Shown one piece after another: positions 1,362 through 30,681 of a DNA stretch of 31,221 bases. Position 1 is the stretch's first letter; every line of letters begins with the position of its first letter. The notes under the pieces were generated by a model. The model saw only the letters and a list, made by a program, of their open reading frames with translations, did not search any database and had not been told where the DNA came from. The DNA comes from an uncultured Planctomycetaceae bacterium (GTDB lineage Bacteria > Planctomycetota > Planctomycetia > Pirellulales > Lacipirellulaceae): NCBI GenBank assembly GCA_964526975.1, contig CAZGMU010000006.1:1211-32431 (forward strand), given 5' to 3'. The position numbers were made by a program, and so were the translations under genes.

Positions 1362-1903
1362 AGAGGACACAGAGTTCACCGAGGAAGAAGAATGCGAATC
1401 GTACGGGTTCAGAATCCATGATGACCCAATTCAATTTTATGCTCAATGATAAATGAGGGCGTCCGGGAATTTCGGGTGGCACGCTACGCCGTTAACCCTT
1501 TCAAAAGAGACTCACGCAGAGGCGCGAAGGCGCAGAGTAATGAATGGAACCACGAAGTACACGAAGATCACGAAGAAGGAAGAGAATGAGCAAGTCTTTT
1601 TTGCAGCCACTTCCAAGATTCTTTGTGTCCTTCGTGTCTTTGTGGTTCCATTCATTCTCCCCACTCTCCCCTGCGTCTCTGCGTGAGATCCTTTTAAAGT
1701 TAACAGCGTAGAGTGGCGCGCCCTGAGTCTTCGAAGGGTATGGAACTGCACAGTTCGGCGAACCACGCCCTTCCCAAAGCGTCAGGGCGTGCCACCCCTA
1801 CGTTTTCATTCCCGGCTGCCTCAATTATAAATGCGTTTCCCTTTCCAGTTTTTCGTCAATTCAAATCGGGGCTCTCTGTGCCCCCTGTGTTGTCTGTAGT
1901 TTA
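1356..1903. repeat. Multi-level nested palindromic repeat cluster
   Basis: Inverted arm pairs at 1356-1383/1872-1902, 1454-1470/1808-1823, 1474-1484/1787-1797, 1485-1496/1699-1710, 1511-1537/1666-1687 and 1542-1575/1621-1653. Confidence 0.8.
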
Positions 1904-1920: not shown

Positions 1921-4900
1921 TCACTTGCGTGTCGTCAGGTACTCAACGATGTCGAGAAACTCAGAGGGAGCGAGTGTGCTGGCCAAGTTCTCGGGCATGC
2001 TGCTCTGCTTGGTTTCGGCCATTTCATCGATGTCCTTGTTGGCAACCGTCTCTTGTTTACCTCCTGCTAGTAGGAGCGTCACCGAATCGTTCGTCTTGGA
2101 AAGAATAAAACCGACGAGAATTTTGCCGTCGTTCGTAATAATGTTCGTGGTCACATATTTCGCGTCCACTTTCTTACTGGGCTCGATGATCGACTCGACG
2201 ATGTCGTGCCGATTGAGCCGTTTACCGACGTCCGTAAGCTCGGGACCAAACGTATAGCCGGTTTTGCCGATCTTATGGCAACTGGCACAAACCCGGCCGA
2301 AGATGCGGGCGCCATTATCGGCGTTGCCGGAGAGTTTTTCGATATCGGCGTATGCCTTGGCTCGCTGCTTGCCTGAGATATCGGGATTCACAAGCGTTTT
2401 GATCTGGGCTTGTGCCAAGATCGACGGCGCTCGGCGCAGGAAATAACCGTGAATGTACTCGGTCGCCCGTTCATTGCCTGTCGTCAGCGAGCCATCTTCG
2501 AAAGCCGGCTTCCAGACTGGCTCGAGGGCGACAAGCGTGTGTTCGAGCGTGTAATCGATCCACGGATCGCTAGGAAAATCGAGCGAAGTGAGTGCGGCCT
2601 TGGCCGAGACGAGCGTAGGGAAAAAGCTGAGGCCGCGGATAGCTTCGAGGCGAACGCGTGGATTTACATCGCGAGCGCCGGTGGCAAGAAGCTGAACGGC
2701 GTTGGGGATGTAGTCCATTTCGTCGGCCACGAGGTGCATGGCCGCTGCCCGGGCGTTTGGTGTTTTGGATTTCAACACGTCGTTAAGCAAGTTGGGATTA
2801 ACGGCATGATGGCTTTGCAGAGCCCACAGCGCTTCGCAGCGGAGGCGATCGTACTCTGGATCATTTTTGTCAAGGCGGTCAACCCATTTTTTGACTGCCG
2901 CGGCTACCGCCGACCTTGGCCGATCCCGCAACTCGCGACGAGCACGGTAACGAGTGCGCAGCTCATAGGCACGGGTCTGTTCGAGAAGTTCGGTCTCGGT
3001 CTTGTCAAACTGAACAACTGGGTCCAGCAGCTTCTTATCCTTGTAGACCAGCCGATAAATTCTGCCGCGGAGATGGTCGCGGTTGGGATCGCGCTGGGAG
3101 TATTGCATGTGGCCGATGAGGGCGTTGCACCAATCGCCGAACCAAACCGCGCCGTCGGGGCCGACCTGCGGATCGACGGGGCGGAAGTTTTTGTCTTTGC
3201 TGACGAGCAGATCGTCGGGCTCTGGCTGTGCGTCGGGTTTTCCCTCGGGCGCAGGTTTCATCACGCGGCCGCCGACGAAGCCGGATTGCTGATCGTGAAC
3301 GTCGAACCGCGGAATGCCGTTCATATTGATCACGCACCCGTAGATGAACTGTCCCTGGACGTTGTCTGGAAACTGGCGAGTATAAAGAAACTCACTGCCA
3401 ACGCAGGGCCGCATACCCTGATTGTTGAACACGGGGTCGATTCCACGACGACCAGAAACTTCGGCGCCGGAAAGGGGCGAGTCCCAATGTTGTTGCGCAG
3501 TGGTGCCATCGCCGACGAAGCCCTGGCCCCATTGGTCGAACACATAGCACCAGGGGTTGCCATAACCGGGAGTCGAATAATGGCGCATCTTCAAGGTGCG
3601 CGGGTCGAAGATGTAGGCGCCAGAGGCATCGCGGCGGCGGAAGGGGCCCCAAGGGGTCTCGATCGTGGTGCTCATCGAGATGCCTTCGAGCGTGTGGAGC
3701 AGGCCGCCGTTGGAATACTCGCTCTTGCCCATGGCGTGATGAGTGTCGTCGCTGGCCGCGCCGTCCAAGAGATCGACCACGAGATCAGCTTTGTCGTCGC
3801 CGTCGGTATCTTTAATCCAGAGAAGGCGTGGTTGATCGGCAACCAGTACGCCGCCGTTCCAAAATTCGAAGCCGGTCGGACAATGGAGCTTATCGTAGAA
3901 GACAGTACACTTGTCGGCCCGGCCGTCGTGATCGGCATCTTCCAGAATGAGGAGCCGATCATTGGGCCTCGGATTGCCCGGCTTCCATTGAGGGTAGGTG
4001 GGCATGCAACAAACCCACAATCGACCGCGGTTGTCGAAGCTAAGCTGGTCCGGCTTGGCAAGTTCAGGGAACTCGCGCTCGCTGGCAAAGGGTTGCACCT
4101 CGAAGCCGTCTGGCACCTGCATCGACCTGGCCGATTCTTCAGGCGTGAGATATTTCAGCTCGGCCGGTTCGGAATAATGCTGCTGTGGATTGCCGAAACG
4201 CGTAAGTGGAACAATCAGATCGCCAGTTTTATCATCGTTTGGCGGCGAAGGTGATTTCCCTTGGGCAAGATCCCAAATATAGCGATCGCGCACGTCGGTC
4301 ATCGCCCGAATCTTCTTGTATTCGCGTGGGAAGGTTTCTGTATCCCACGTGCGGCGACCGCCGTAAACATACCAGCCGTTGAGCATGCGGTAGTCTTGCT
4401 GGTGAATCCAGGACTTGTCGTTGACGGCCTCGCGAATGGCTTGAAAGGGGCCTTCCAAATTTGCTTTAGAGGAGTTGCCAAACAATGCATCGCACAGCAG
4501 CCGTCCGACTTCGCGATCGCCGGCTTCGTTGAGGTGACAACCGTTGATCGTGTATTGCATGCCCGGCTTGTCGGTGAACAGCAGTTCGGTCGGCGCGAAG
4601 AGATCGACATACGCCAGGCCACGCTCGCGAGCCACCTTTTCGACGACTGCCGCGTGGCGCCGCAGGTCATTATTTCGCTTGCTGGCTTCGGGCCACAATG
4701 GATTATCGGTTGGCTCCCAGGCGATCGGAGAAATCAGAACGAATCGCGGTGGCTTGCCATTGGCTCGCGGGTATTGCTGGGCCATTTCGTCGAGATATTT
4801 GCCATAGGCCGCACGAAACTGATCTTCACCGGCAACACTGGCGAACGACTCATTGAAACCGAAGAAGCAAAGGAAGGTGTCGGCCCCGAAGACCTTCAAC

Positions 4901-5262
4901 GGATCGTCCAGAGTGGTGTAACTATTGGGACGTTGGCGGTTGTCGACCGCGTCGCAAGGCCAGCCGAAGTTGCGGATCACAAGCTCTTCTTGGGGAAACC
5001 GCATATGGAGCATCGACTCGAAGTTGCCGAACAGATTCATCCGTTCGGCGAGTGAGCCACCGACGAACGCGATTCGCTCATGGGGCATGAACCGCAGCGG
5101 GAGCTTGCTGGCAGGCAAGTTGCCTGAAATCGATTTCGCAGGGGACTCGCCTTCGGAAGGCGTTCCCGGTTTGGCAGATGGCGTGGCCGCATAGACAACG
5201 GCCACGGCGAGCAGCAAAACGCAAAGACTAGAAACCAGCTCCGATTTGATCGATTTCATCAT
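1921..5262 (-). CDS. PVC-type heme-binding CxxCH protein (SGNH-like domain, dehydrogenase-like beta-propeller, HEAT repeats, C-terminal cytochrome c)
   Basis: Signal peptide MMKSIKSELVSSLCVLLLAVAVVYA; SGNH-like blocks (IAFVGGSLAE, RNFGWP, CHLN); FASE..PELAKP..FDNRGRLWV propeller; CASCHKIG heme motif followed by GPELTDVG and SSMP. Start set at 5262 (ORF track 5400). Confidence 0.9.
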   Translation of the reverse strand: MMKSIKSELVSSLCVLLLAVAVVYAATPSAKPGTPSEGESPAKSISGNLPASKLPLRFMPHERIAFVGGSLAERMNLFGNFESMLHMRFPQEELVIRNFGWPCDAVDNRQRPNSYTTLDDPLKVFGADTFLCFFGFNESFASVAGEDQFRAAYGKYLDEMAQQYPRANGKPPRFVLISPIAWEPTDNPLWPEASKRNNDLRRHAAVVEKVARERGLAYVDLFAPTELLFTDKPGMQYTINGCHLNEAGDREVGRLLCDALFGNSSKANLEGPFQAIREAVNDKSWIHQQDYRMLNGWYVYGGRRTWDTETFPREYKKIRAMTDVRDRYIWDLAQGKSPSPPNDDKTGDLIVPLTRFGNPQQHYSEPAELKYLTPEESARSMQVPDGFEVQPFASEREFPELAKPDQLSFDNRGRLWVCCMPTYPQWKPGNPRPNDRLLILEDADHDGRADKCTVFYDKLHCPTGFEFWNGGVLVADQPRLLWIKDTDGDDKADLVVDLLDGAASDDTHHAMGKSEYSNGGLLHTLEGISMSTTIETPWGPFRRRDASGAYIFDPRTLKMRHYSTPGYGNPWCYVFDQWGQGFVGDGTTAQQHWDSPLSGAEVSGRRGIDPVFNNQGMRPCVGSEFLYTRQFPDNVQGQFIYGCVINMNGIPRFDVHDQQSGFVGGRVMKPAPEGKPDAQPEPDDLLVSKDKNFRPVDPQVGPDGAVWFGDWCNALIGHMQYSQRDPNRDHLRGRIYRLVYKDKKLLDPVVQFDKTETELLEQTRAYELRTRYRARRELRDRPRSAVAAAVKKWVDRLDKNDPEYDRLRCEALWALQSHHAVNPNLLNDVLKSKTPNARAAAMHLVADEMDYIPNAVQLLATGARDVNPRVRLEAIRGLSFFPTLVSAKAALTSLDFPSDPWIDYTLEHTLVALEPVWKPAFEDGSLTTGNERATEYIHGYFLRRAPSILAQAQIKTLVNPDISGKQRAKAYADIEKLSGNADNGARIFGRVCASCHKIGKTGYTFGPELTDVGKRLNRHDIVESIIEPSKKVDAKYVTTNIITNDGKILVGFILSKTNDSVTLLLAGGKQETVANKDIDEMAETKQSSMPENLASTLAPSEFLDIVEYLTTRK

Positions 5263-5415
5263 ATTCCGCCGATGGATGGTTCGCAAAACACATGCCGTTA
5301 TCTTATCGCGAATCGGAAGAAATGTCTGTAAGCTTTCTAATACCGGTCTTCGGCTTTGGCTGATACTTGACTTGCTGAGTAATCTCACGCGGCGAATCAT
5401 TCGCCTGCAAGTTCA

Positions 5416-5549
5416 ATGAGGGTGTCCGGAAATTCCGGGTGGCACGCCCTGACGCTTTGGGAAGGGCGTGATCCGCCGAATGGTACGCTCCACGCCCTTC
5501 GAAGCCTCAGAGCGTGCCACCCATAAGCTCGAATTCCGGAAACCTTCAG
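5416..5549. repeat. REP doublet (GGGTGGCACGCCCTGA family) inside a TGAGGGTGTCCGGAAATTC outer palindrome
   Basis: gggtggcacgccctgacgctttgggaagggcgtg (5438-5470) is the exact reverse complement of 1764-1797. The outer arm 5417-5435 pairs with 5531-5548. Bases 5416-5447 nearly match 1453-1484. Confidence 0.85.
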
Positions 5550-7049: not shown

Positions 7050-8507
7050 CTACGCCAAGATTTCTTTGATGACGTGGGCGGGAAGAACGCCGGTCAGCTT
7101 CTGGTCGAGGCCTTGGCTCTTGAACGAGAAGCGCTCATGGTCGAAGCCAAGCTGGTGGAGCACGGTCGCGTGGAAATCACGAACGTGGACCGGGTCTTTG
7201 GTGATGTTGTAGGAGAAATCATCGGTCTCGCCGAGGACCGTGCCTCCCTTGAAGCCGCCGCCCGCCATCCACATCGTGAAGCAGCGCGGATGATGATCGC
7301 GGCCGTAGTTCTGCATCGAGAGACCGCCTTGCGAATAGACCGTGCGGCCGAACTCGCCGCCCCAGACGATCAGCGTGTCGTCGAGCATGCCGCGCTGCTT
7401 GAGGTCTTCGATCAGCGCGTGGCAAGGTTGATCGACGTCTTTGCATTGCATCGGCAAGCGGCCGGCAACATTACCGTGCGTGTCCCAGTTGTTGTGGTAA
7501 ATCTGCACGAAACGAACACCGCGCTCAACCATCCGGCGAGCAAGCAAGGCGGTGTTGGCGAAGGTACCAGGGTTCTTCGCCTCGTCGCTGTAGAGCTTGA
7601 ATGTCGATTCGGGCTCGCTGGCGATATCGGTCAGTTCGGGAACGCTGGCCTGCATGCGGTAGGCGAGTTCGTACTGTTGGATACGCGTTTGGGTTTGGGG
7701 ATCGCCGAGTTGCTGATAATTCAGTTCGTTGAGCGCGTTGAGGCCGTCGATGCTGGCGCGGCGGACATCGCGCGAAACGCCGGGAGGATCGTTTATGTAG
7801 AGGATCGGGTCGCCGGCCGTTCGCAGGCTGACGCCAGCGTGCGTGCCGGGCAGGAAGCCGCTCGACCACAGCCGAGCGGAAATCGCCTGCACTTGCTCGG
7901 TGTTCGAGCTTTTGGCAACCATGACGACGAATGTCGGCAGGTTGTCGTTCAGCGAGCCCAGGCCGTAGGAAGCCCAGGCGCCCAGGCAAGGGCGACCCGT
8001 GATCTGGTTGCCGCTCTGCATGAGCGTGATCGCCGGCTCGTGGTTGATCGCCTCGGTGTGCATGCTGCGGATGAAGACGATGTCGTTGACCGACTTTTTC
8101 AGATAGGGCAACAACTCGCTGATCCACATCCCCGATTGGCCACATTGCTCGAAACGGTACATCGACGGAGCGATCGGGAAGCGAGCCTGGCCGCTGGTCA
8201 TGGTCGTGAGCCGCTGGCCGTTACGGATCGACTCGGGCAGGTCCTTGTCGTACCAGTCGCGCATAACAGGCTTGTAATCGAAAAGGTCCATCTGCGACGG
8301 ACCGCCAACCATGTGCAGATAGATGATCTGCTTAGCCTTGGGCGCGAAATGGGTATGGGGCAGAGGCGGTTCAGCGTCGGCAGCCAAGCTGCTGGCGAAC
8401 GACCTCGCAGAGAGCGAAGCCAACGCGGCGCCACCCAACAAATGAGAACCCGCCGAGAGGAAGAAACGGCGCGATACCTGTTGACGAAATTCTTCGAATG
8501 GGCTCAT
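7050..8507 (-). CDS. DUF1501 domain protein (alkaline phosphatase/sulfatase-like, Tat signal)
   Basis: SRRFFL twin-arginine leader; KAKQIIYLHMVGGPSQMDLFD, HTEAINHEPA, LARRMVERGVRFVQ, GGEFGRT, GRDHHP, VHVRDFHATVLHQLG. Confidence 0.93.
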   Translation of the reverse strand: MSPFEEFRQQVSRRFFLSAGSHLLGGAALASLSARSFASSLAADAEPPLPHTHFAPKAKQIIYLHMVGGPSQMDLFDYKPVMRDWYDKDLPESIRNGQRLTTMTSGQARFPIAPSMYRFEQCGQSGMWISELLPYLKKSVNDIVFIRSMHTEAINHEPAITLMQSGNQITGRPCLGAWASYGLGSLNDNLPTFVVMVAKSSNTEQVQAISARLWSSGFLPGTHAGVSLRTAGDPILYINDPPGVSRDVRRASIDGLNALNELNYQQLGDPQTQTRIQQYELAYRMQASVPELTDIASEPESTFKLYSDEAKNPGTFANTALLARRMVERGVRFVQIYHNNWDTHGNVAGRLPMQCKDVDQPCHALIEDLKQRGMLDDTLIVWGGEFGRTVYSQGGLSMQNYGRDHHPRCFTMWMAGGGFKGGTVLGETDDFSYNITKDPVHVRDFHATVLHQLGFDHERFSFKSQGLDQKLTGVLPAHVIKEILA

Positions 8508-8547
8508 GGCGGGACTCACCATTAAATGGCGAATGGTCTTTTCCAGT

Positions 8548-11500
8548 TTACTTATTCAATACTTCGTCGAGGTTCATTAGCTCGTTGGCAACCATCGTCC
8601 AGGCGGCTAACTGCGACACGGGCAGCTTCGGCTCGGCCTTCGACTCGCCAACGGCAATGAGCTTCTGGGCTTCTTCGCCTTGTGCAGCATAATGCTTTTC
8701 GAACTTTTCGAGCGACCCCCGAACGATTGCCAACTCTTCCGGATGCAGCGGCCTCGCTAACAACCGTTCGGCCATGAAGTTCAATCGTTTGTCCTGATCA
8801 GCACTCGAATCGATGGCCCGTTGGGCCAGATTGCGAGCGGCCTCGATGAATTGCGGATCGTTGAGCGTCACGAGCGCCTGTAACGGTGTGTTCGTACGTT
8901 CGCGGATCACGACACACGCCTCGCGGGTCGGGGCGTTGAATATATCCATCGACGCCGGAGGCGCGGAACGCTTCCAAAACGTGTACATGCTGCGGCGGTA
9001 GAGCGATTCACCGGCGTCTTGCTTGTAATCGCGGGTATTGCTACCAATCATTGCGACAGCTTCCCATACACCTGCCGGCTGATAGGGCTTCACGCTCGGG
9101 CCGCCGATCTTCTCGGAGAGAAGGCCGCTGGCGGAGAGGGCGTAGTCGCGCACCATCTCGGCATCCATGCGAAACCGAGGGCCACGAGAGAGCAAGCGGT
9201 TTTCGGGGTCCTTTTCGAGCTTCTCCTTAGTCACAATCGCACTCTGGCGATACGTGGCCGACATGACCATCAGCTTGAACAGCTTCTTCACGTCCCAGCC
9301 TGACTCGCGGAACTCGACAGCGAGCCAATCGAGTAATTCGGGGTGCGAAGGCAACTCGCCGGAGACGCCAAAATCACCTGCCGAGCGGACTAGCCCCGTG
9401 CCAAACAGTTCGCTCCACAGGCGATTCACCGTGACACGAGCGGTCAGCGGATGCTCGGGACGGAGCAACCACTTGGCCAATCCCAAGCGATTGTGTGGCA
9501 AATCGGCGGGGAAGGGTGGCAGCATCGAGGGCGTGCCCGGCGAAACCTGATCCTTGCGCTGATCGTATTCCCCACGATTGAGAACGAAAGCGATCGGCGC
9601 TTCGGGCTTCTCTTGCATTACGTAACCGGTCGTGGAGCGGGCTTGAATATCAGCCTGCTCGCGGGTGAGATCGTCCCGATTTTTCGAGAGCTCCTGGTAC
9701 TGATCATCGCGGGTAGTAAGCCACCATTCATATAGACTGTCGACATCGGCGGGGCTGCGTTTCTCGGGCGGGGCCGCAACGACCGCCGCGAGCGCCGACC
9801 GGGCCAACGAGGCTACGTCCCCATCGGTCAAGCGGCGCGAGTAAACGCGGACATCTTGAATCGACGCCCCCGTGAGTGGTGATGTGTTGTCCCGCTGGCC
9901 AATTTTGAATGGCACGGTGGTGCGAATCGAATCGGTCAACGAGTCGGCCTGCACGTTCGTGGGCTGCGATTTGCCGTTTACATAGACGCGCACCCCGGCA
10001 GCCTTCTTCGTGCCATCGTACGTAATCGCGATGTGTGTCCACTGATCGGCGGGAAGCTGTTCCGCCGTCACCACCTTGAGCGCGTTGGCAGGCCATTGGC
10101 TGATGATGTGCGCCCCAACGCGGCGTCCCTCGACCCACAGGTCGTAGCCGCGGAAATTGTCGTTGTCGTTCATCCGGGCAAGGATCGCGCCGGAGCCGTC
10201 GTTCGCGGGAAGTTTTACCCACGCCGAATAGGAGAATTGCTGAGTCGAATCGAAATCTCCCGCTTCGGGCACAACCAGCACCGCGCCTTGATTCACGTAG
10301 GCAGCCTTCGCGTCAGTTCGGCCAGGACGCCATTCGACTGTAGAGGGCAGCGGTTTTTCGGCATGCTGGCCGCGCAGATCATAGCCAACCGCGGCGGCGC
10401 CATCATTGAGCGGAACGAGCAGTTCGAGTTCGGAAGTCGGCATTTCCCCGGCAATATCTTGCGGCTTCGCCTGAGCAAGCCAGGAATCGAACTCCTTGCG
10501 AGCATCTCGTCGCCGGTCGTCGACCAACTTCTTCGACTCCGGCAGGAGCTTGCTCAACTGCTCGAGCCGGGACGCATCGTCTTTTTGCGGGACCATCACG
10601 ATCGGCGGCGTGTCCTTGATGTTGCCGTCCATCGGTTTCTGCGTGGTATTGTTGAAAAACGCGGCGAGCTCGTAGAACTCCTTCTGCGTCATCGGATCGA
10701 ACTTGTGGTCATGGCACACGGCGCAACCCGTCGTAAGGCCCAGCCACACCTTCGATGTCGTTTCGACACGATCGCGCGTGTAAAGAACCTGGTACTCTTC
10801 GTCGATCGCGCCACCTTCGCTCGTCGTGATATTGCAGCGATTGAAGCCGGAGCCGAGCTTTTGTTCGAGCGTGGCATTCGGCAACAGGTCGCCGGCCAGG
10901 TTCTCGATCGTGAACTCGTCGAACGGCATGTTCTTATTCAGCGCATCGATGACCCAATCGCGATACGACCACATCTCACGATAGTTGTCGATGTGGATAC
11001 CGTGGGTATCGCCATAGCGAGCCGCGTCGAGCCAGTACCGGCCACGGTGCTCGCCCCACTTGGGCGATGCCATTAGCTTGTCGATCAGGCGCTCGTAGGC
11101 GTCTGGCTTGTCGTCTTTGACAAACTCCTCAACAGCATCGGGCGCCGGCGGCAGCCCGATCAGATCAAGGCTCACGCGGCGAGCCAGCGTCCGGCGATCG
11201 GCTTCGGGAGCAGGGGTGAGACCGGCTGACTGGAGCTTTTCCGCAACGAAGTTGTCGACTGGATTGTGAGCCCAGCCATTTCCCGCGGCGCTTGGCACAG
11301 GCGGCCTGACCGGCGCGATCAACGACCAATGCGGCTGATACTTGGCTCCGCTCTTGATCCAATCCGCCAGGAGTTTCTTTTGAGAATCGGTAAGCTGCTT
11401 CTTCGTTTCGGGCGGCGGCATTTGCTCCGACTCATCGTCCGATAAAATACGCCGCACCATTTCGCTGGCATCGGCGTCCCCCGGGACAATGGCCGCCATA

Positions 11501-11715
11501 TCAACGGCCACATCACGCTTGTCGAGTCGAAGGTCCGCCTTACGCGAAGCACTATCCGGACCATGACAAGCAAAGCAATTCTCCAAGAGAATCGGTCGGA
11601 TATCTCGATTATATTGGATCGCCGAATCGGCGGCCCTCACAACTCCAGCGCCAAAGCAAGCGCACAAAGCAAGCGTGAAACAGGTAAGGGTTCGTCGCGT
11701 GGAAGGCGAGTTCAT
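8548..11715 (-). CDS. DUF1549/DUF1553 planctomycete cytochrome c protein with an inserted LamG-like (concanavalin A) domain
   Basis: [20 protein letters not shown] and [11 protein letters not shown] heme motifs; [17 protein letters not shown]; LamG-like [21 protein letters not shown]; [11 protein letters not shown] and [11 protein letters not shown]. Confidence 0.93.
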
Positions 11716-11990
11716 GCCGTGTGGTTGCCGCATAGGTGGGGTGGGGATTAGCAGAACGGCCGCTCAGCGGAGAGCGCTCGCGGATCGTTCAACTGGCAAA
11801 CCATCGCTATCGGATATAATAGCCGATTCGAGGCAAAAAGCCAAGCGTTTATGCTGCTTAATACTTCTTCGTGGGATACACTAGGCACAGATTTCGACCA
11901 CGTCTTGCGCGGATTTCAGCGAATTCTTCGCCGAGCCCCCAAACAGGGCCGACCTTCCTTCGAAATAGCCTCCCTATAAAGGATACGTCC

Positions 11991-19850: not shown

Positions 19851-20011
19851 CTCACGCAGAGGCGCAGAGTAAGGAATGGAACCACAAAGGCACGAAGGAC
19901 ACGAAGAAGAAAGAGGGATGAGCAGGTCTTTTTTACAGTTACTTTCAAAATTTTTCGTGTCTTTGTGGCTCCATTCATTCTTGTCTTTGCGTCTTCGCGC
20001 CTTTGCGTGAG
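19851..20011. repeat. Composite two-level palindromic element (copy 2)
   Basis: Outer ctcacgcagagg...ctttgcgtgag arms, inner gaatggaaccac...gtggctccattc arms, and a loop similar to 1576-1620. Confidence 0.88.
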
Positions 20012-22086: not shown

Positions 22087-23148
22087 ATGAAGAAATATCT
22101 CCACTACTTGTATGCACTACTGGCATGCCTGGGGGCAACACTTTTGGTCGCACAAGCGCAAGCCGATCCGCTGCCAGGCCAAGTTTTGAAGTTCGACCAA
22201 TCACCGATGATTGCCACGACGATTCCCGCCGGTGGACAGATTCAAACTTATTACGGTCACGATGAGCTGAGCACGGCCTATGGTGTGTCCACCGCGGCAG
22301 GTCCGCCGATAAGTTATCGGGGCACGTTCATGGCCGATGATTTCGCAGACAAGTTCAGCACACCGGTGGTCCACATCACGTGGTGGGGCTCCTATATCGA
22401 CAACAACATTCCGGGAGTTCCGCCGCAACCGCCCGTCCAGAAGTTTCTCATTGCCTGGGAAACCGACGTGCCGCAGGGACCGGGCGTGCCGTTCAGTTAT
22501 CCTGGGTCTGTCATCCAACACGAAGTCGTGACGCTCGGCAATTTATCACCAGGCACGTTTACGGAAACGCTTGAGCGCGGCCCGGATCCTGTCTTGGGCG
22601 AGGCGCTTTACCGATACAACGCCGAGTTGGCACTGCCGTTCGCTCAAAAGCCGGATACGGTGTACTGGTTGAAGATCGCCGCGCTGGTCGATGTGCCGCA
22701 ACCGCTTCCTCCTGTCCCGGCTCCGATTCCAACAGGCGTTACGCAATGGGGTTGGCACAATCGCGACTACACGATCAACAATCCGCAAGCGTCGGTGGCT
22801 CCGAATGTGAACCCCGGCGAGGACATCGACGGCGTCGTACCGGGCTCCAATGTCCCCGTTTGGCATTTCCAGGATGACGCGGTCACGGGCATTTTGGATT
22901 TCGTACCTGTTTCGCCGAACGGTCCGATTATCAATCAGTTCAATATGACGCCGACGCACTATTTGTTCGCGAACAACAACGGTGTCGGGCCGATTGACGG
23001 GCCTCAAGGAATTGAACTGAAGTCGAAGGATCTTGCTTTTCGGTTGTACACGGATCCAATTCCCGAGCCGGCGAGCTGCCTGTTGATGGTGATCGGTCTG
23101 GCGGGAATCACGGCAAGCCGACGACGATTCCGCTCGCACCAAGTGTAG
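22087..23148 (+). CDS. PEP-CTERM protein, Pro-rich, unknown function
   Basis: CAGGA RBS; signal peptide ending AQAQA; ADDF..HITWWGSY; IPEPASCLLMVIGLAGITASRRRFR. Confidence 0.88.
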   Translation: MKKYLHYLYALLACLGATLLVAQAQADPLPGQVLKFDQSPMIATTIPAGGQIQTYYGHDELSTAYGVSTAAGPPISYRGTFMADDFADKFSTPVVHITWWGSYIDNNIPGVPPQPPVQKFLIAWETDVPQGPGVPFSYPGSVIQHEVVTLGNLSPGTFTETLERGPDPVLGEALYRYNAELALPFAQKPDTVYWLKIAALVDVPQPLPPVPAPIPTGVTQWGWHNRDYTINNPQASVAPNVNPGEDIDGVVPGSNVPVWHFQDDAVTGILDFVPVSPNGPIINQFNMTPTHYLFANNNGVGPIDGPQGIELKSKDLAFRLYTDPIPEPASCLLMVIGLAGITASRRRFRSHQV

Positions 23149-23306: not shown

Positions 23307-23939
23307 ATGAGAATTAAAATTAATACGACCACACCGAGCTTCGCCACGCTGTTGGCACTTGCGATTGTTGCCGCTTCGGCCGCTCACGGATCGACCATTG
23401 TTTACGACAACCTCTCGCCGGTGGCGCCTTACTATCACAATTACGGCAACTGGTTGGGGACGTTTGGCGGTCAGTATGAGATCACGGCCACGACGTTTGT
23501 GCCGAACGCGTCGGGACAGCTCGACGAATTGACGCTGGGATTGTTTTATCAAATGGGCGCGAATTCGGTGACGTTGCGGTTGTCGCCGGATGTCGCGGGA
23601 TTGCCAAGCACGCCGATCTGGCAAACGTCAGTGCCGCCCGCCGCCGGCTATGGGGCACTGCTCAACGTGAGCGGAATCGGTGGGCCGATGCTGACGGCTG
23701 GGCAGATGTACTGGCTGGAAGGCGTCGCGCCGGTTACTCCGACGACATTGCATGGTTGGTATTCGAACAACCAGGGCAGCTATGGACCGATCATTGCATC
23801 GGGCAATTACGGGGTGAACCAACTGCGATTTTCGTTGCGGGTGGGAGTGCTATCGACGGTGCCGGAGCCGGGAGCAGGTGTACTGGTTGGCTGCGGTTGC
23901 CTGGGAATGCTGGGCCTGGGGCGGCGGAGCCGGACGTAG
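23307..23939 (+). CDS. PEP-CTERM protein (choice-of-anchor R-like domain, tentative)
   Basis: Signal peptide ending AASAAHG; TIVYDNL, TTFVPNASGQL..L.L, YWL; VPEPGAGVLVGCGCLGMLGLGRRSR. Confidence 0.85.
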   Translation: MRIKINTTTPSFATLLALAIVAASAAHGSTIVYDNLSPVAPYYHNYGNWLGTFGGQYEITATTFVPNASGQLDELTLGLFYQMGANSVTLRLSPDVAGLPSTPIWQTSVPPAAGYGALLNVSGIGGPMLTAGQMYWLEGVAPVTPTTLHGWYSNNQGSYGPIIASGNYGVNQLRFSLRVGVLSTVPEPGAGVLVGCGCLGMLGLGRRSRT

Positions 23940-24096
23940 CACGGGCTTTTGCCCGTGTTTTCAAGGGGCAGGTTTTTCGTGGTGTGGGAGAGAAATAGAC
24001 AGACGGACTGAAGTTCATCCCACGCGGGTCCATTGCCTTTCTTGCAGCCGTGGCGGAGAATAGCAGAAATTCCATTTCCCTTGAAGCTCGCCCACG

Positions 24097-24522
24097 ATGC
24101 GGACTATTCGTCACCGATTTTTGAGCTGCCTGCTGCTGGCGGCTTACGCCGGCATTTCGTTACTGGGCGACGGTCTGCACTTGTTGCTCCCAGAGGGTCA
24201 GCAGCACCATCATCATCACGGAACCTACGTCGCTGGCCACAGTTGCCACGACTCGCAGCACGCCTATCATCATCACGACGATGCTTGCTGCTCGGACTGT
24301 TCCGACGATGTGGGGCCGGCGATCAGTGATTCAGACGTGGATGGGCATCTCTGCGAGATTTGCTCGTTCCTTGTGAATGCCATTTCGCAGTCGGTGGAGG
24401 CCGCTGCCGCGGTCGATTGGCAGCCGCTCGTTGTAGAATCTGAGCCTGAAACGCAGGCTGTCTATTCATGTATCTCTCTAGGACCTCAAGCGCCGCGTGG
24501 CCCGCCATTGTTGCTGGGCTGA
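24097..24522 (+). CDS. His/Cys-rich DUF2946-like leader protein with CxxC and C-terminal RGPP
   Basis: N-terminal hydrophobic segment, HHHHH and HHH tracts, HLCEIC, and APRGPP four residues before the stop. Confidence 0.75.
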   Translation: MRTIRHRFLSCLLLAAYAGISLLGDGLHLLLPEGQQHHHHHGTYVAGHSCHDSQHAYHHHDDACCSDCSDDVGPAISDSDVDGHLCEICSFLVNAISQSVEAAAAVDWQPLVVESEPETQAVYSCISLGPQAPRGPPLLLG

Positions 24523-24684
24523 TTCGCTGTCGCTGCATCGTTCATGGCTGAGCGGCGCTATCTATATCTATAGCTGCGCGTGTCGTGATCGGTTCGCTTT
24601 GTGAACCGGCTCGCTGCGCGCTGATTACCACGCGTGAAAGGGCTTGTTGCACGTGGGGTTTCGATGCGTATTTGAGGTTTTGTC

Positions 24685-25587
24685 ATGTCTGGTTCCAAGA
24701 AGCGGGCGTTTACGCTTGTCGAGTTGTTAGTCGTGATTGCCGTGATCGGCATCTTGGTCGCTTTGTTATTGCCGGCGATTCAGGCGGCGCGCGAAGCGGC
24801 CCGGCGGTCGCAGTGCAAGAATAATCTGAAGCAGATTGGATTGGCGCTGCACAATTACGAGAGCACGCGCAAGGCGTTTCCGCCGAGCTTCGTCTCGAAG
24901 GCCGTGGCGATCAATGAAGAGGGGCAGGGGCCCGGTTGGGGGTGGGGCGCTCACATTTTGCCCCATTTGGAAGAGGCGAATCTCAACATCGATTTGAAGC
25001 GCGAGATCACCGATCCCCTGTACAACGAGATTCGCACGAAGCCGCTAAGCGTTTTTCGTTGCCCGAGCGATGCGGTGGAAGATCCACTCGTTTCGGTGCA
25101 GAACGCTTCCGGAGCGGAGCTGACGAAGGTGGCGTTTGCCAACTATGTCGGTGTGGGCGGCACGGCCGAAGTGAGCGGTTTTCCGGATACGGGAACCGGG
25201 GTATTTCTACGAAACCGGGGAGTCCGCATCAAGGAAATCACCGACGGCACGAGCCACACGATCATGGTCAGCGAGCGGGCCAGCCGGCAGTCGCCACAGA
25301 CGACCTGGGTCGGGGCGATCACCGATGCCAGCGTGCCGCCGAAGAACCCGGCCTACGAGGAGGAAGGGCCGCCGGTGCTGGTGCTGACGAACACGGGCGA
25401 GGCGGCCGACGGCCGAGTGCCGAACAACGAATTGGACCATGTGGAGGACTCGAACAGCATGCACCCACAAGGTGTCCACATCATGTTTGCCGACGCCTCG
25501 GTGCAGAACATTAATAATGACATTGATCCCAAGGTATGGGAGGCGCTGGGAACCCGGGCGGGGAGCGAGCCGAATGGGAGCTACTGA
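24685..25587 (+). CDS. DUF1559 (prepilin-type N-terminal methylation) protein
   Basis: KKRA|[50 protein letters not shown]; C-terminal [15 protein letters not shown] (H-X9-DG variant); GAGG RBS. Confidence 0.95.
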
Positions 25588-25621
25588 TGGGCAACACGCA
25601 ATTACGTAAGTCCTAAAAGAT

Positions 25622-25805
25622 CTCACGCAAAGGCGCGAAGGCGCAAAGAATACGAATTCATTTACCATTAAGTACACCAAGATCACGAAGAAAGAAAAGG
25701 AATAGGCAGAAGGTGTTGCAGCCACTTCAAAGGCACTTTGTGCCCCTCGTGCCCCTTGGTGGTTCAATTCATTCTTTACTTTGCGCCTTCGCGCCTTTGC
25801 GTGAG
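25622..25805. repeat. Composite two-level palindromic element (copy 3)
   Basis: Outer ctcacgcaaaggcgcgaaggcgcaaag / ctttgcgccttcgcgcctttgcgtgag arms; inner caccaagatcacgaag arms; loop shares ttgcagccacttc with copy 1. Confidence 0.88.
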
Positions 25806-26043
25806 ACTTCCCCTTGGTTGGGAGAAGGCTGGGGCGAGGGTGCCTTGTAGAGTTCCTTAGATAAGGTTAACGGCATAGAGTTAGTCTGTGATTGTTGTGA
25901 GAGATCCGAGGGAAGGAACTGACGGACTGGAGTCCGTTCCACGAAAGAATGGCCGGTTATGACGGCTGGAGTGTCGCGTGGGACGGAAATGGGCCGATTT
26001 CGGCCGGGGAATCGGGTTAATCGGCAGCGAGTGTGGAGTTTGC

Positions 26044-29505: not shown

Positions 29506-30681
29506 ATGCGTCGGTGGATGGGTGGACTTGTTGTTTTCTCTAGCGTTTTGACGTTCGCCTTTGCTCAGCCTATCCAGGCGGCGCCGAAGGGGTTTACCGA
29601 GCTACGCATTGGCGACAAAGCGCCCGACTTCGACCTGCCTGGGGTTGATGGCAAACGCTACTCGCTGAAAGACTTTGCCGATGCCAAGCTGCTGCTGGTG
29701 GTCTTTACGTGCAATCATTGTCCTACGGCACAAGCATACGAAGAGCGGATCAAGCAGCTAGACGCCGACTACAAGGAGAAAGGCGTCGCGCTAGTTGCAA
29801 TCTCGCCGAACGACGACCGCGCCCTGCGGCTGGACGAGCTGGGCTACACCGACGTGGGCGACTCGTTCGACGATATGAAGCTGCGCGCGAAAGAGCAGAG
29901 CTTCAAGTTTCCATACCTCTACGACGGCGAGACGCAGAAAACCGCGCTCGCGTATGGCGTGCTGGCGACGCCGCAGGTGTATTTGTTCGACAGCGAGCGG
30001 AAGCTGCGTTACGTGGGCCGGATTGACGACTCGGATGTAAAGACAGTGACCAGCCACGACGCGCGGAACGCTATCGATGCGTTATTGGCAGGCAAGGCCG
30101 TGCCCGTGGAGAAGACTCGCAACTTCGGTTGCTCCACCAAGTGGGCAGAGAAACGGGCCGATGCCGCGGCTTCGATCGAGAAGTGGAACAAGGAGCCGGT
30201 CACGCTCCGGCCGCTCGACGAGGCCACGCTGGCCGAGTTGGTCAAGAATGACTCGGACCAATGGCTGCTTGTGAATGTCTGGGCGACGTATTGTTCGCCG
30301 TGTATTGAGGAACTGCCCGAGTTCGTAACGATCAATCGCATGTATCGGCAGCGGAATGTGCGTGTCATCACGATTACGCTTGATGATCCGGAGCAAGCCG
30401 AGACAGCGAAAAAGATTCTCGAAGATCGCCATGTGGCGCTCGTGAATTTCATCTCGGCGATTCCAAGCGCGGATCGATTGGCCGATTTGCTCGATCCAGA
30501 ATGGCGGGGCGTGTTGCCGCATACGGTTTTGATTGCGCCGGGCGGCAAGGTGGTGTTTCGGAGCGACGGCGAGATCAAGCCGCTGGAAGTGCGCCGCGCG
30601 ATCGTCGAGCAGATTGGCCGGACGTATGCGAATCGGGCGAAGAAGGCGGCAGGCGATCGATCGACAAGATTTGGAAAGTAA
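29506..30681 (+). CDS. Two-domain redoxin (CNHCP domain plus TlpA-like domain)
   Basis: VFTCNHCP and FGCSTKW in the first domain; NVWATYCSPC..ELP in the second. Confidence 0.92.
   Translation: MRRWMGGLVVFSSVLTFAFAQPIQAAPKGFTELRIGDKAPDFDLPGVDGKRYSLKDFADAKLLLVVFTCNHCPTAQAYEERIKQLDADYKEKGVALVAISPNDDRALRLDELGYTDVGDSFDDMKLRAKEQSFKFPYLYDGETQKTALAYGVLATPQVYLFDSERKLRYVGRIDDSDVKTVTSHDARNAIDALLAGKAVPVEKTRNFGCSTKWAEKRADAAASIEKWNKEPVTLRPLDEATLAELVKNDSDQWLLVNVWATYCSPCIEELPEFVTINRMYRQRNVRVITITLDDPEQAETAKKILEDRHVALVNFISAIPSADRLADLLDPEWRGVLPHTVLIAPGGKVVFRSDGEIKPLEVRRAIVEQIGRTYANRAKKAAGDRSTRFGK

Follow-up and report, generated by a model that had tools for sequence, protein, structure and literature searches.

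A DUF2946-like leader open reading frame with an RGPP motif upstream of a DUF1559 pseudopilin-like gene in Planctomycetota: a candidate nascent-chain sensor

The leader-DUF1559 unit

In this work, we analyzed a 31,221-nucleotide (nt) stretch of DNA, referred to here as the window, from an uncultured Planctomycetaceae bacterium of the GTDB family Lacipirellulaceae (assembly GCA_964526975.1, contig CAZGMU010000006.1, positions 1,211 to 32,431 of the forward strand), and specifically a small open reading frame (ORF) that precedes a gene of the DUF1559 family. This leader ORF encodes a protein of 141 amino acids (aa) with an export segment, a His/Cys-rich region, a CxxC and an RGPP motif close to its C-terminus, and it is a candidate arrest peptide resembling the copper-sensing leaders CruR and CutF. 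Homology searches and locus comparisons place it in a conserved family of planctomycete leaders, followed by DUF1559-type genes in all loci with enough downstream sequence. The features of the unit are the following:

23939-23961 (+), hairpin resembling a terminator, GCACGGGC-TTTT-GCCCGTG followed by a T run, where the upstream PEP-CTERM gene ends (read from the sequence)
24033-24061 (+), promoter-like element: -35 TTGCCT (24033-24038), 17-nt spacer and -10 GAGAAT (24056-24061) (nine-locus alignment)
24097-24522 (+), leader ORF with ATG start, 141 aa, TGA at 24520-24522; a planctomycete DUF2946-like (CruR/CutF-type) candidate arrest peptide
24118-24180 (+), hydrophobic export/transmembrane (TM) segment, residues 8-23, then G-x-G-L-H (GDGLH, residues 24-28, nt 24166-24180) (AlphaFold2 (AF2) helix 2-27; conservation)
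24202-24351 (+), putative ligand segment, His/Cys-rich, disordered and of variable length (QHHHHH..HSCHDSQHAYHHHDDACCSDC..DGH) (composition; predicted local distance difference test score below 60)
24352-24363 (+), invariant CxxC, C86-E-I-C89 (alignments of 14 and 129 sequences; paired by hhalign with the CxxC of DUF2946)
24364-24495 (+), fixed-length 44-residue spacer from the CxxC to the putative arrest motif (family spacing; CruR analogy)
24496-24507 (+), putative RGPP arrest motif, R134 G135 P136 P137 (invariant R-x-P-P; stall predicted from work on CruR and on RAPP/RGPP)
24523-24684 (+), untranslated spacer of 162 nt with conserved hairpins at 24535-24558 and 24576-24621 (close-clade alignment, RNAalifold)
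24674-24677 (+), Shine-Dalgarno-like GAGG, 7 nt before the DUF1559 ATG (TTTGAGG conserved in the close clade)
24685-25587 (+), DUF1559/prepilin-type (H-X9-DG) pseudopilin-like gene, 300 aa, the presumed regulated gene (PF07596, E 5e-51; PF07963 N_methyl, 3e-07; TIGR04294)

An initial annotation of this DNA had described a 141-aa ORF with an export or TM segment, about 14 His and 8 Cys, a CxxC and an RGPP, with the two Pro codons at 24502-24507 and an end 162 nt before the DUF1559 gene, and all of this agrees with our reading of the ORF and its spacer. The RGPP, which had been called terminal, does lie near the C-terminus; its exact place is residues 134-137 of 141, with four residues (LLLG) remaining before the stop codon. 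The N-terminus (MRTIRHRFLSCLLLAAYAGISLLG) comprises a basic stretch and then a hydrophobic helix of 16-18 residues, and there are two CxxC motifs, CSDC and CEIC, the latter being the conserved one. An AF2 model built on a 129-sequence alignment shows two helices, one at residues 2-27 and a short one (87-97) that begins at the CxxC, and coil elsewhere, that is, no fold (predicted template modelling score (pTM) of 0.28). As judged from the sequence and this model, the leader appears to carry the N-terminal Sec signal peptide expected of a DUF2946 protein.

Upstream of the leader, the hairpin at 23939-23961 would separate the unit from the transcription of the preceding gene. Equivalent G+C hairpins with a T run occupy the same place in the alignment of five related loci (L029 and L032-L035), and a simple terminator scan passed over the hairpin of the window, presumably since it has only 4 T. 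The promoter-like element lies ~36 nt upstream of the leader ATG; its TTGCCTT block and the -10 positions A, A, A and T (consensus xAxAAT) are invariant in nine close-clade loci, their flanks diverge, and we infer that it acts as a promoter. Since this element precedes the leader and the hairpin ends the upstream gene, the leader appears to be transcribed together with the DUF1559 gene, as a single unit.

The leader family and its relation to DUF2946

A word-indexed protein search with the leader returned 13 homologues, and a full profile search returned at least 164 cluster representatives (50%-identity clusters, E<=1e-3), nearly all of them 120-180 aa long and matched end to end; every homologue that could be placed taxonomically belongs to Planctomycetota. 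R[AGS]PP was found in 149 of the 161 retrieved relatives (123 RGPP, 25 RAPP and 1 RSPP), 1-16 residues from the C-terminus in nearly all of them (mostly 2-4 residues; three have longer tails). The other 12, without R-x-P-P, are contig-end fragments or frameshifted sequences, one of them fused to the downstream FTLVELL prepilin gene, and every complete member of the family keeps both the CxxC and the C-terminal R-G/A-P-P. The layout proposed by the initial annotation, which loss of these two motifs in homologues would have contradicted, thus withstands the comparison.

Across the 129 full-length members, with a mean column identity of just 17%, the invariant columns are C86, C89, R134, P136 and P137, and G24, L27 and H28 of the G-x-G-L-H are at least 90% conserved; C86 and C89 are also invariant among the 14 closest sequences. 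Of 146 members, 140 have 42-45 residues between CxxC and RxPP (50 have 43, and 75 have 44, the value of the window), and the length of the segment between GxGLH and CxxC varies over 36-113 residues. His accounts for a median of 17% of the residues between GxGLH and CxxC versus 2% between CxxC and RxPP, with medians per leader of 13 His in the whole protein and 3 extra Cys in the segment that would have emerged from the ribosome at a stall on the motif. The strongly constrained features of the leader are therefore only four: an export helix ending in GxGLH, a variable His/Cys segment, the CxxC and R-G/A-P-P. At the codon level, the motif is encoded over 35 distinct loci by all four CGN codons for Arg, all four codons for Gly, two for Ala and all four for Pro, and because all these synonymous codons occur, selection appears to act on the peptide and not on the RNA. 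By these comparisons, the leader ORF is a real conserved gene, far beyond chance.

Substitutions at position 2 of R-x-P-P are limited to G, A and one S. Of these, G and A yield RGPP and RAPP, the two variants that experiments showed to be the most robust arrest cores and refractory to elongation factor P (EF-P) (Fujiwara et al., EMBO J 2025, PMC12992588). The same survey found RGPP at 0.15x and RAPP at 0.19x of expectation in the proteomes of Planctomycetota, a scarcity that fits a translation-impeding effect in this phylum, and reported that both motifs concentrate at the C-termini of small secretory proteins.

Loci were gathered from GTDB genomes, metagenomes and contigs encoding close homologues (individual loci are given as L numbers), and 34 had enough downstream sequence. 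In all 34, down to ~30% leader identity, a DUF1559-type prepilin gene follows the leader on the same strand, so the pairing that the initial annotation had noticed in the window extends to each of these loci; in one locus (L020) a PEP-CTERM gene stands between the two. Leader-DUF1559 spacers in these relatives measure about 90-490 nt. The genome-derived loci all belong to Planctomycetota (Pirellulales, Lacipirellulaceae, Thermoguttaceae) and include two cultured carriers, Bythopirellula polymerisocia Pla144 (L025) and Adhaeretor mobilis HG15A2 (L028); a further cultured carrier, Rhodopirellula europaea 6C, appears in the supplement of the Fujiwara et al. survey. When the search was made from the DUF1559 side, two distant orthologues on long contigs (72% and 64% identity), both counted among the 34 loci, were found to have a leader upstream, although it had not been called: the leaders occupy L037 1358-1795 and L038 1424-1858 on the plus strand, and the public gene calls replace them by antisense ORFs (L037 1277-1969 (-), L038 1391-1831 (-)). 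The family is under-annotated, since automatic gene calling frequently passes over the leader or annotates an ORF on the opposite strand, which is probably why the word search yielded just 13 homologues as compared with hundreds of DUF1559 orthologues.

A third DUF1559 orthologue (L039, 59% identical to that of the window) has no RGPP leader. In its place, the upstream side holds a secreted poly-His ORF (..GHGSHHGHHYRHHHDHH..HHHHHPHHHH) and a divergently oriented gene with an HMA (heavy-metal-associated) domain, and an AhpC/redoxin gene lies downstream. This arrangement is circumstantial support for a metal or redox link of this DUF1559 subfamily:

L039 1252-1590 (+), poly-His ORF
L039 221-751 (-), HMA gene
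L039 2936-3715 (+), AhpC/redoxin gene

Two further loci deserve mention. One from Thermoguttaceae (L022) contains two tandem leader-DUF1559 pairs (2501-2944 / 3181-4122 and about 4190-4613 / 5097-5429), and in L003 (4827-5397) a frameshift, either an assembly error or the mark of a pseudogene, divides the leader between two frames (4827-5210 and 5104-5397).

The initial annotation had linked the leader to DUF2946. Pfam and NCBIfam scans of the window protein matched no family, and against the Pfam PF11162 hidden Markov model (HMM) it gave no match even at E<=1 (gathering score 23.7 bits); its 14 closest homologues reached E 0.053 at best. At the level of the family, E<=0.01 against PF11162 is reached by 15 of the 129 members (3.6e-6 at best), one planctomycete relative of the same GxGLH..CPIC..RAPP layout scores 30.4 bits, above the cut-off, and an hhalign comparison of the 129-member family with six bona fide DUF2946 proteins gives a probability of 89% and an E-value of 2e-6, over just 60 columns in which two motifs dominate. 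Direct membership of the window leader in DUF2946 is thus ruled out by the scans, and what stands of the earlier proposal is a remote relationship of the family. The sequence data fit a divergent, planctomycete-specific branch remotely related to DUF2946, and the likeness may also reflect convergence on two short motifs; we would file the window protein as DUF2946-like and not as a Pfam member.

DUF2946 proteins have been described as carrying an export signal and a RAPP three residues from the end, and as the first product of an operon with a long intergenic region; the CxxC-RAPP spacing is 45 residues in CruR and within 1-2 residues of this in more than 2000 DUF2946 proteins, of which only "a few" homologues had been noted in Planctomycetes (Roy et al., mBio 2022, PMC9426467). 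The leader of the window shares five of these features (the export signal, the CxxC, the place of RxPP, the spacing, and an apparent first position in an operon ahead of a long spacer) and departs from DUF2946 in two, the HMM threshold and the copper-gene context: in place of the metal genes typical of DUF2946 (TonB-dependent transporter, PepSY_TM, CopC, multicopper oxidase, PCuAC, YcnI), a DUF1559/prepilin gene lies downstream in 34 of 34 loci. The general layout of the CruR/CutF type, as recognized in the initial annotation (export signal, His/Cys ligands, CxxC, near-C-terminal RGPP, long spacer and co-oriented gene), was found in full.

The likeness to CruR (Bp2923) of Bordetella pertussis is considerable in detail. 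Both proteins are of similar length (145 aa in CruR versus 141 aa in the window), have an export signal and a CxxC, are predicted to be unstructured, carry RxPP 3 and 4 residues before the stop and a CxxC spacing of 45 and 44 residues, respectively, and are encoded by the first gene of a unit whose intergenic spacer measures 162 bp in both cases (CruR data from PMC9426467); the profile match runs from the CxxC through RxPP. On the other hand, CruR has RAPP where the window leader has RGPP, the GxGLH and the poly-His segment are extras of the window leader, and the genes downstream of CruR encode a TonB-dependent transporter and a PepSY_TM protein instead of a DUF1559 pseudopilin-like protein. 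Stalling of the ribosome on CruR blocks Rho and is relieved by copper (PMC9426467), and the arrest at RAPP has been seen by toeprinting (PMC12992588). CutF of Rhodobacter capsulatus, also a DUF2946 protein (Ozturk et al. 2021/2023), works in the opposite sense: copper induces the stall, which melts a stem-loop over the cutO ribosome-binding site (bioRxiv 10.1101/2025.02.05.636593). As the window leader appears to do, CutF pairs a Sec signal peptide with a Cys/His site for metal and has an arrest motif at its C-terminus, in its case a proline repeat, and it precedes an exported protein; nascent-chain sensing is a property of CutF. It differs in that its target is a multicopper oxidase and in the Shine-Dalgarno-shielding structure, which is not detectable in the window, and RGPP arrest is reportedly EF-P-refractory, a further difference from CutF.

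A broader set of RAPP/RGPP peptides (ApcA, ApdA, ApdP and those of Streptomyces) resembles the window leader in being small (<300 aa) and secretory, with the motif near the C-terminus and a co-oriented gene downstream, and seven such peptides of Streptomyces lividans arrest translation both in vitro and in vivo (Fujiwara et al., Nat Commun 2024 and EMBO J 2025, PMC12992588). In a wider sense, C-terminal arrest controlling a downstream gene also relates the window leader to SecM and TnaC, with which it has no sequence relationship. SecM arrests at a C-terminal RAGP with Pro in the A site and regulates the downstream SecA through unmasking of a Shine-Dalgarno sequence, whereas in TnaC, which has no export signal, free tryptophan is sensed inside the tunnel and the stalled ribosome blocks Rho over a long spacer.

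The initial annotation knew of no description of the leader-DUF1559 pairing. The pairing is on record, as in the source data of Fig. 4A in Fujiwara et al. "DUF1559 domain-containing protein" figures as one of the 30 most enriched downstream classes, with 116 RGPP versus 24 AGPP upstream ORFs (uORFs; 8.7-fold, adjusted p 4.9e-28) and 112 RAPP versus 68; by deepTMHMM, 107 of the 116 RGPP uORFs have a signal peptide, 5 a TM segment and 4 are globular, and the printed examples before DUF1559 share a GxxxH..CxxC..RxPP layout (PMC12992588). DUF1559 is unmentioned in the main text of that paper, and we found no other paper on the pairing in the searchable literature: it is catalogued but uncharacterised. 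That survey grouped uORFs by downstream annotation alone. What the present analysis adds is that the leaders appear to form one homologous DUF2946-like family with CruR-like spacing, together with the additional GxGLH/poly-His module, the strict linkage to DUF1559, the conserved promoter-like element and the hairpins of the spacer.

Proposed mechanism and alternative explanations

By analogy with the systems described above, we consider it probable that the leader is a CruR/CutF-type regulatory nascent peptide of a two-gene unit (promoter, leader, 162-nt spacer and DUF1559 gene) that senses a ligand and controls DUF1559 in cis. Arrest at RGPP is strongly suggested by the known RAPP/RGPP peptides, and the stalled ribosome would have the codon for Pro136 (24502-24504) in its P site and that for Pro137 (24505-24507) in its A site. 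At this point the 44-residue spacer would fill the exit tunnel, the CxxC would have just emerged and the His-rich segment would be outside, probably engaged with or past the Sec translocon. Accordingly placed, the constrained part of the leader appears to be the one that fills the tunnel at a stall on the PP codons, and His is concentrated in the part that would already be outside. Binding of a ligand to the CxxC and the His cluster, possibly together with Sec pulling, would then decide whether the stall persists, and the state of the stall would set DUF1559 expression in cis. A metal is the most probable ligand, and among metals a soft or borderline one such as Cu, Zn or Ni, because of the His/Cys composition, the use of copper by CruR and CutF, and the poly-His and HMA genes beside the leaderless orthologue of L039.

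The coupling step is the weakest part of this model. A stalled ribosome may keep Rho off the transcript across the spacer, as in CruR or TnaC, and we favor, with low confidence, such read-through or polarity control over Shine-Dalgarno unmasking, because no structure masking the Shine-Dalgarno sequence was detectable and the spacers are long and variable. The hairpin at 24576-24621 is kept in 10 loci and shows both-sided changes at 3 pairs. Neither spacer hairpin has a U-tract, on which ground an intrinsic terminator was rejected, and an Rfam scan of the window and four loci found no family.

Several observations weigh against the proposed mechanism. Two ways of masking the DUF1559 ribosome-binding site were considered and rejected. 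A long-range pairing of its Shine-Dalgarno region (24673-24682) with the CCUC just 5' of the RGPP codons (24479-24488) is present in the minimum free energy folds of the window, L002, L003 and L008, but it is neither conserved nor compensated: no conserved anti-Shine-Dalgarno pairing was found among ten close relatives by alignment and RNAalifold, the fold z-score is only -0.86, and a simulated stalled ribosome barely shifts Shine-Dalgarno pairing, from 0.70 to 0.62. Local sequestration of the CutF/SecM type fares no better, with a Shine-Dalgarno pairing of 0.575 versus 0.596 in dinucleotide shuffles of the spacers and 14 of 26 loci above. As for Rho, the C>G (rut-like) bubble that underlies the mechanism in CruR is absent from the window (C 0.29 / G 0.31 at the 3' end of the leader, 0.23 / 0.31 in the spacer), and the spacer is structured and thus unfavourable for Rho loading; relatives do show C>G over the final 120 nt of the leader in 17 of 24 loci (mean C-G +0.059), a weak tendency from which the window is excepted. 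Besides, no metal-homeostasis gene adjoins the unit among the window ORFs examined, the case for co-transcription is one of architecture, and the CxxC could equally report the thiol redox state. Together with the missing PF11162 match, a last point concerns the comparison itself: copper response, Rho dependence and toeprinted arrest are properties of CruR, whereas the system of the window is known from its sequence.

A twin hairpin (GGCAYACTCCGTATGCC ... GGCAYACGGAGTGTGCC, with complementary UCC/GGA loops) was observed in two relatives before or overlapping the DUF1559 start (L002 5475-5533, L005 1071-1146). The two copies are near-identical, though the corresponding leaders are only ~40% identical, and have no Rfam match; the element is absent from the window.

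Among the alternatives, an arrest peptide that would act purely as a monitor of Sec force, as SecM, VemP or ApdA do, is one of the two that survive best, although we regard it as unlikely. Sec pulling would release the stall and tune the prepilin to the export capacity of the cell, with no metal input. Nearly every member of the family has a signal or TM segment at its N-terminus, RAPP/RGPP peptides were first found as Sec/YidC monitors, and the regulated product would itself be inserted by Sec and processed by prepilin peptidase. However, the gene downstream encodes DUF1559 and no Sec or YidC component, unlike the localisation-machinery targets of SecM, VemP, MifM and ApdA/ApdP, and no sec or yidC gene was found among the window ORFs examined. 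Furthermore, a force monitor gives no role to the invariant CxxC at a fixed 43-44 residues, to the near-invariant H28 or to the segment with 17% His, and ApdA-type peptides such as SLIV_07330 lack conserved ligand residues of this kind.

Equally improbable in our judgement is that the leader arrests translation with its CxxC sensing the thiol-disulfide state, so that the stall would end once the emerged Cys/His segment is oxidized or folds. CxxC is the classic motif of thiol oxidoreductases, the emerged segment holds several extra Cys (the median of 3 given above), and RGPP/RAPP uORFs are strongly enriched upstream of DsbA-family and thioredoxin-domain genes (PMC12992588); AhpC/thioredoxin genes also lie in the window at 29506-30681, and in L039 one directly follows DUF1559. 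Against this, so high a His content (a median of 13 in each protein) is a mark of metal ligation rather than of redox sensing, CruR and CutF, the nearest relatives to have been characterised, use their Cys motif for copper, and it is poly-His and HMA genes that accompany the leaderless orthologue.

Slightly less probable still is a stand-alone exported protein, either a metallochaperone or another partner of the DUF1559 protein, whose RGPP would have a structural or sorting role and whose adjacency to DUF1559 would reflect a joint function. The leader gene is indeed real, conserved, His/Cys-rich and apparently exported, and a functional partner would also show strict co-occurrence with DUF1559. 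Nevertheless, the leader has no predicted fold and conserves its motif residues alone, and RxPP stands 2-4 residues from the stop in nearly all members, with variation confined to arrest-competent forms. RGPP is ~6-fold depleted in planctomycete proteomes, so its invariance here needs a positive reason. In addition, the fixed CxxC distance combined with a variable N-terminal half fits the geometry of the tunnel and not a folded domain, and the long untranslated spacer is itself conserved as a feature. Finally, that the ORF is a chance one with a coincidental RGPP and CxxC, as the lack of a Pfam or NCBIfam match for the window protein and the occasional choice of the antisense ORF by gene callers might suggest, is refuted by the at least 164 homologous clusters, their end-to-end matches and the amino-acid conservation through synonymous codon change, and its probability is practically nil.

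The DUF1559 protein and the surrounding genes

The AF2 model of the DUF1559 protein consists of an N-terminal helix (residues 11-62) and a beta-rich head (pTM 0.77), and with this model a Foldseek search, like a PDB sequence search, matched pilin N-terminal helices alone and gave no metal hint. The initial annotation had implicated this DUF1559 member in metal (Zn/Ni/Co/Cu) scavenging; with a fold that resembles pilins alone and no metal gene next to the unit in the window, that claim finds no direct backing, and a metal role of the protein would be guilt by association with its leader, a pure inference. In the closest genomic relative (L001 5588-5701), the DUF1559 frame has the Shine-Dalgarno sequence and ATG of the window but ~30 extra codons before FTLVELL, which represent either a leader-peptide insertion or an unusual prepilin signal.

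Among the more distant loci, 18 encode one or two PEP-CTERM proteins of 230-300 aa after DUF1559, which form an undescribed family. Their genes lie about +850 to +2500 nt after the leader stop in L010-L028 (for instance L010 3775-4623, L014 4284-5096 and L028 3856-4719). Apart from the sorting tail they have no Pfam domain; LFYWDG and G-x-L-H-x-H recur among them as conserved motifs, and in many a His forms or adjoins the predicted mature N-terminus. The family may be a third member of the module. The PEP-CTERM proteins of the window were considered for this place and rejected, since they match through the sorting tail alone; the family is absent downstream of the unit.

To our knowledge, no function has been assigned to any member of DUF1559. 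The family is among the largest of those specific to planctomycetes, with 74 copies in Rhodopirellula baltica (PMC2754498), and the genes preceded by a leader are apparently a small subset of one or two per genome. One may speculate, tentatively, that leader-controlled DUF1559 pseudopilin-like proteins and the PEP-CTERM proteins that follow them in most lineages constitute a metal-responsive envelope apparatus of planctomycetes, switched by the nascent chain through H28, the poly-His segment and the CxxC. Such an apparatus could take the form of a pseudopilus or surface structure that acquires, sequesters or excludes Cu, Zn or Ni. If this were true, it would be the first regulatory input, and hence the first functional assignment, for any DUF1559 member, and pilin-like proteins would join transporters and oxidases as targets of metal-sensing arrest peptides. 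With an architecture like that of copper-sensing arrest peptides, the leader offers a concrete and inexpensive experimental entry point to the family. It would also broaden the known RAPP/RGPP nascent-chain sensors by a phylum-specific branch with a new target class and possibly, given the poly-His segment, a new ligand set, and the under-called leaders of this subfamily expose an annotation problem.

Directly upstream of the leader, L002 encodes a 177-aa ORF (4281-4814 (+)) in which a His-rich motif (HGPGCGH..H.DH[VI]DYL.DG.LHH) is duplicated. It matches no Pfam family and may be another metal-binding protein in the vicinity. The PEP-CTERM proteins upstream of the leader in the window include one with DUF7901 (22087-23148), syntenic in L001, L002 and L037. 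The remaining window, in which no metal-homeostasis gene was found, has an ordinary planctomycete gene content, such as a large DUF7133/GDSL/HEAT/cytochrome c protein (1921-5400) and, at 7050-11733 on the minus strand, a PSCyt1/PSCyt2/PSD1 (DUF1549/DUF1553) cytochrome-like protein with DUF1501, a pair typical of planctomycetes.

The DUF1559 gene is directly followed by a perfect inverted repeat of 28 nt (TCTCACGCAAAGGCGCGAAGGCGCAAAG / complement; 25621-25648 and 25779-25806), whose arms surround a 130-nt A+T-richer segment. Two further related copies of its 22-nt core occur in the window (1516-1537 and 19985-20006), with zero expected by chance. It looks like a dispersed element akin to repetitive extragenic palindromes (REP) or miniature inverted-repeat transposable elements (MITE), and could serve as the terminator of the unit.

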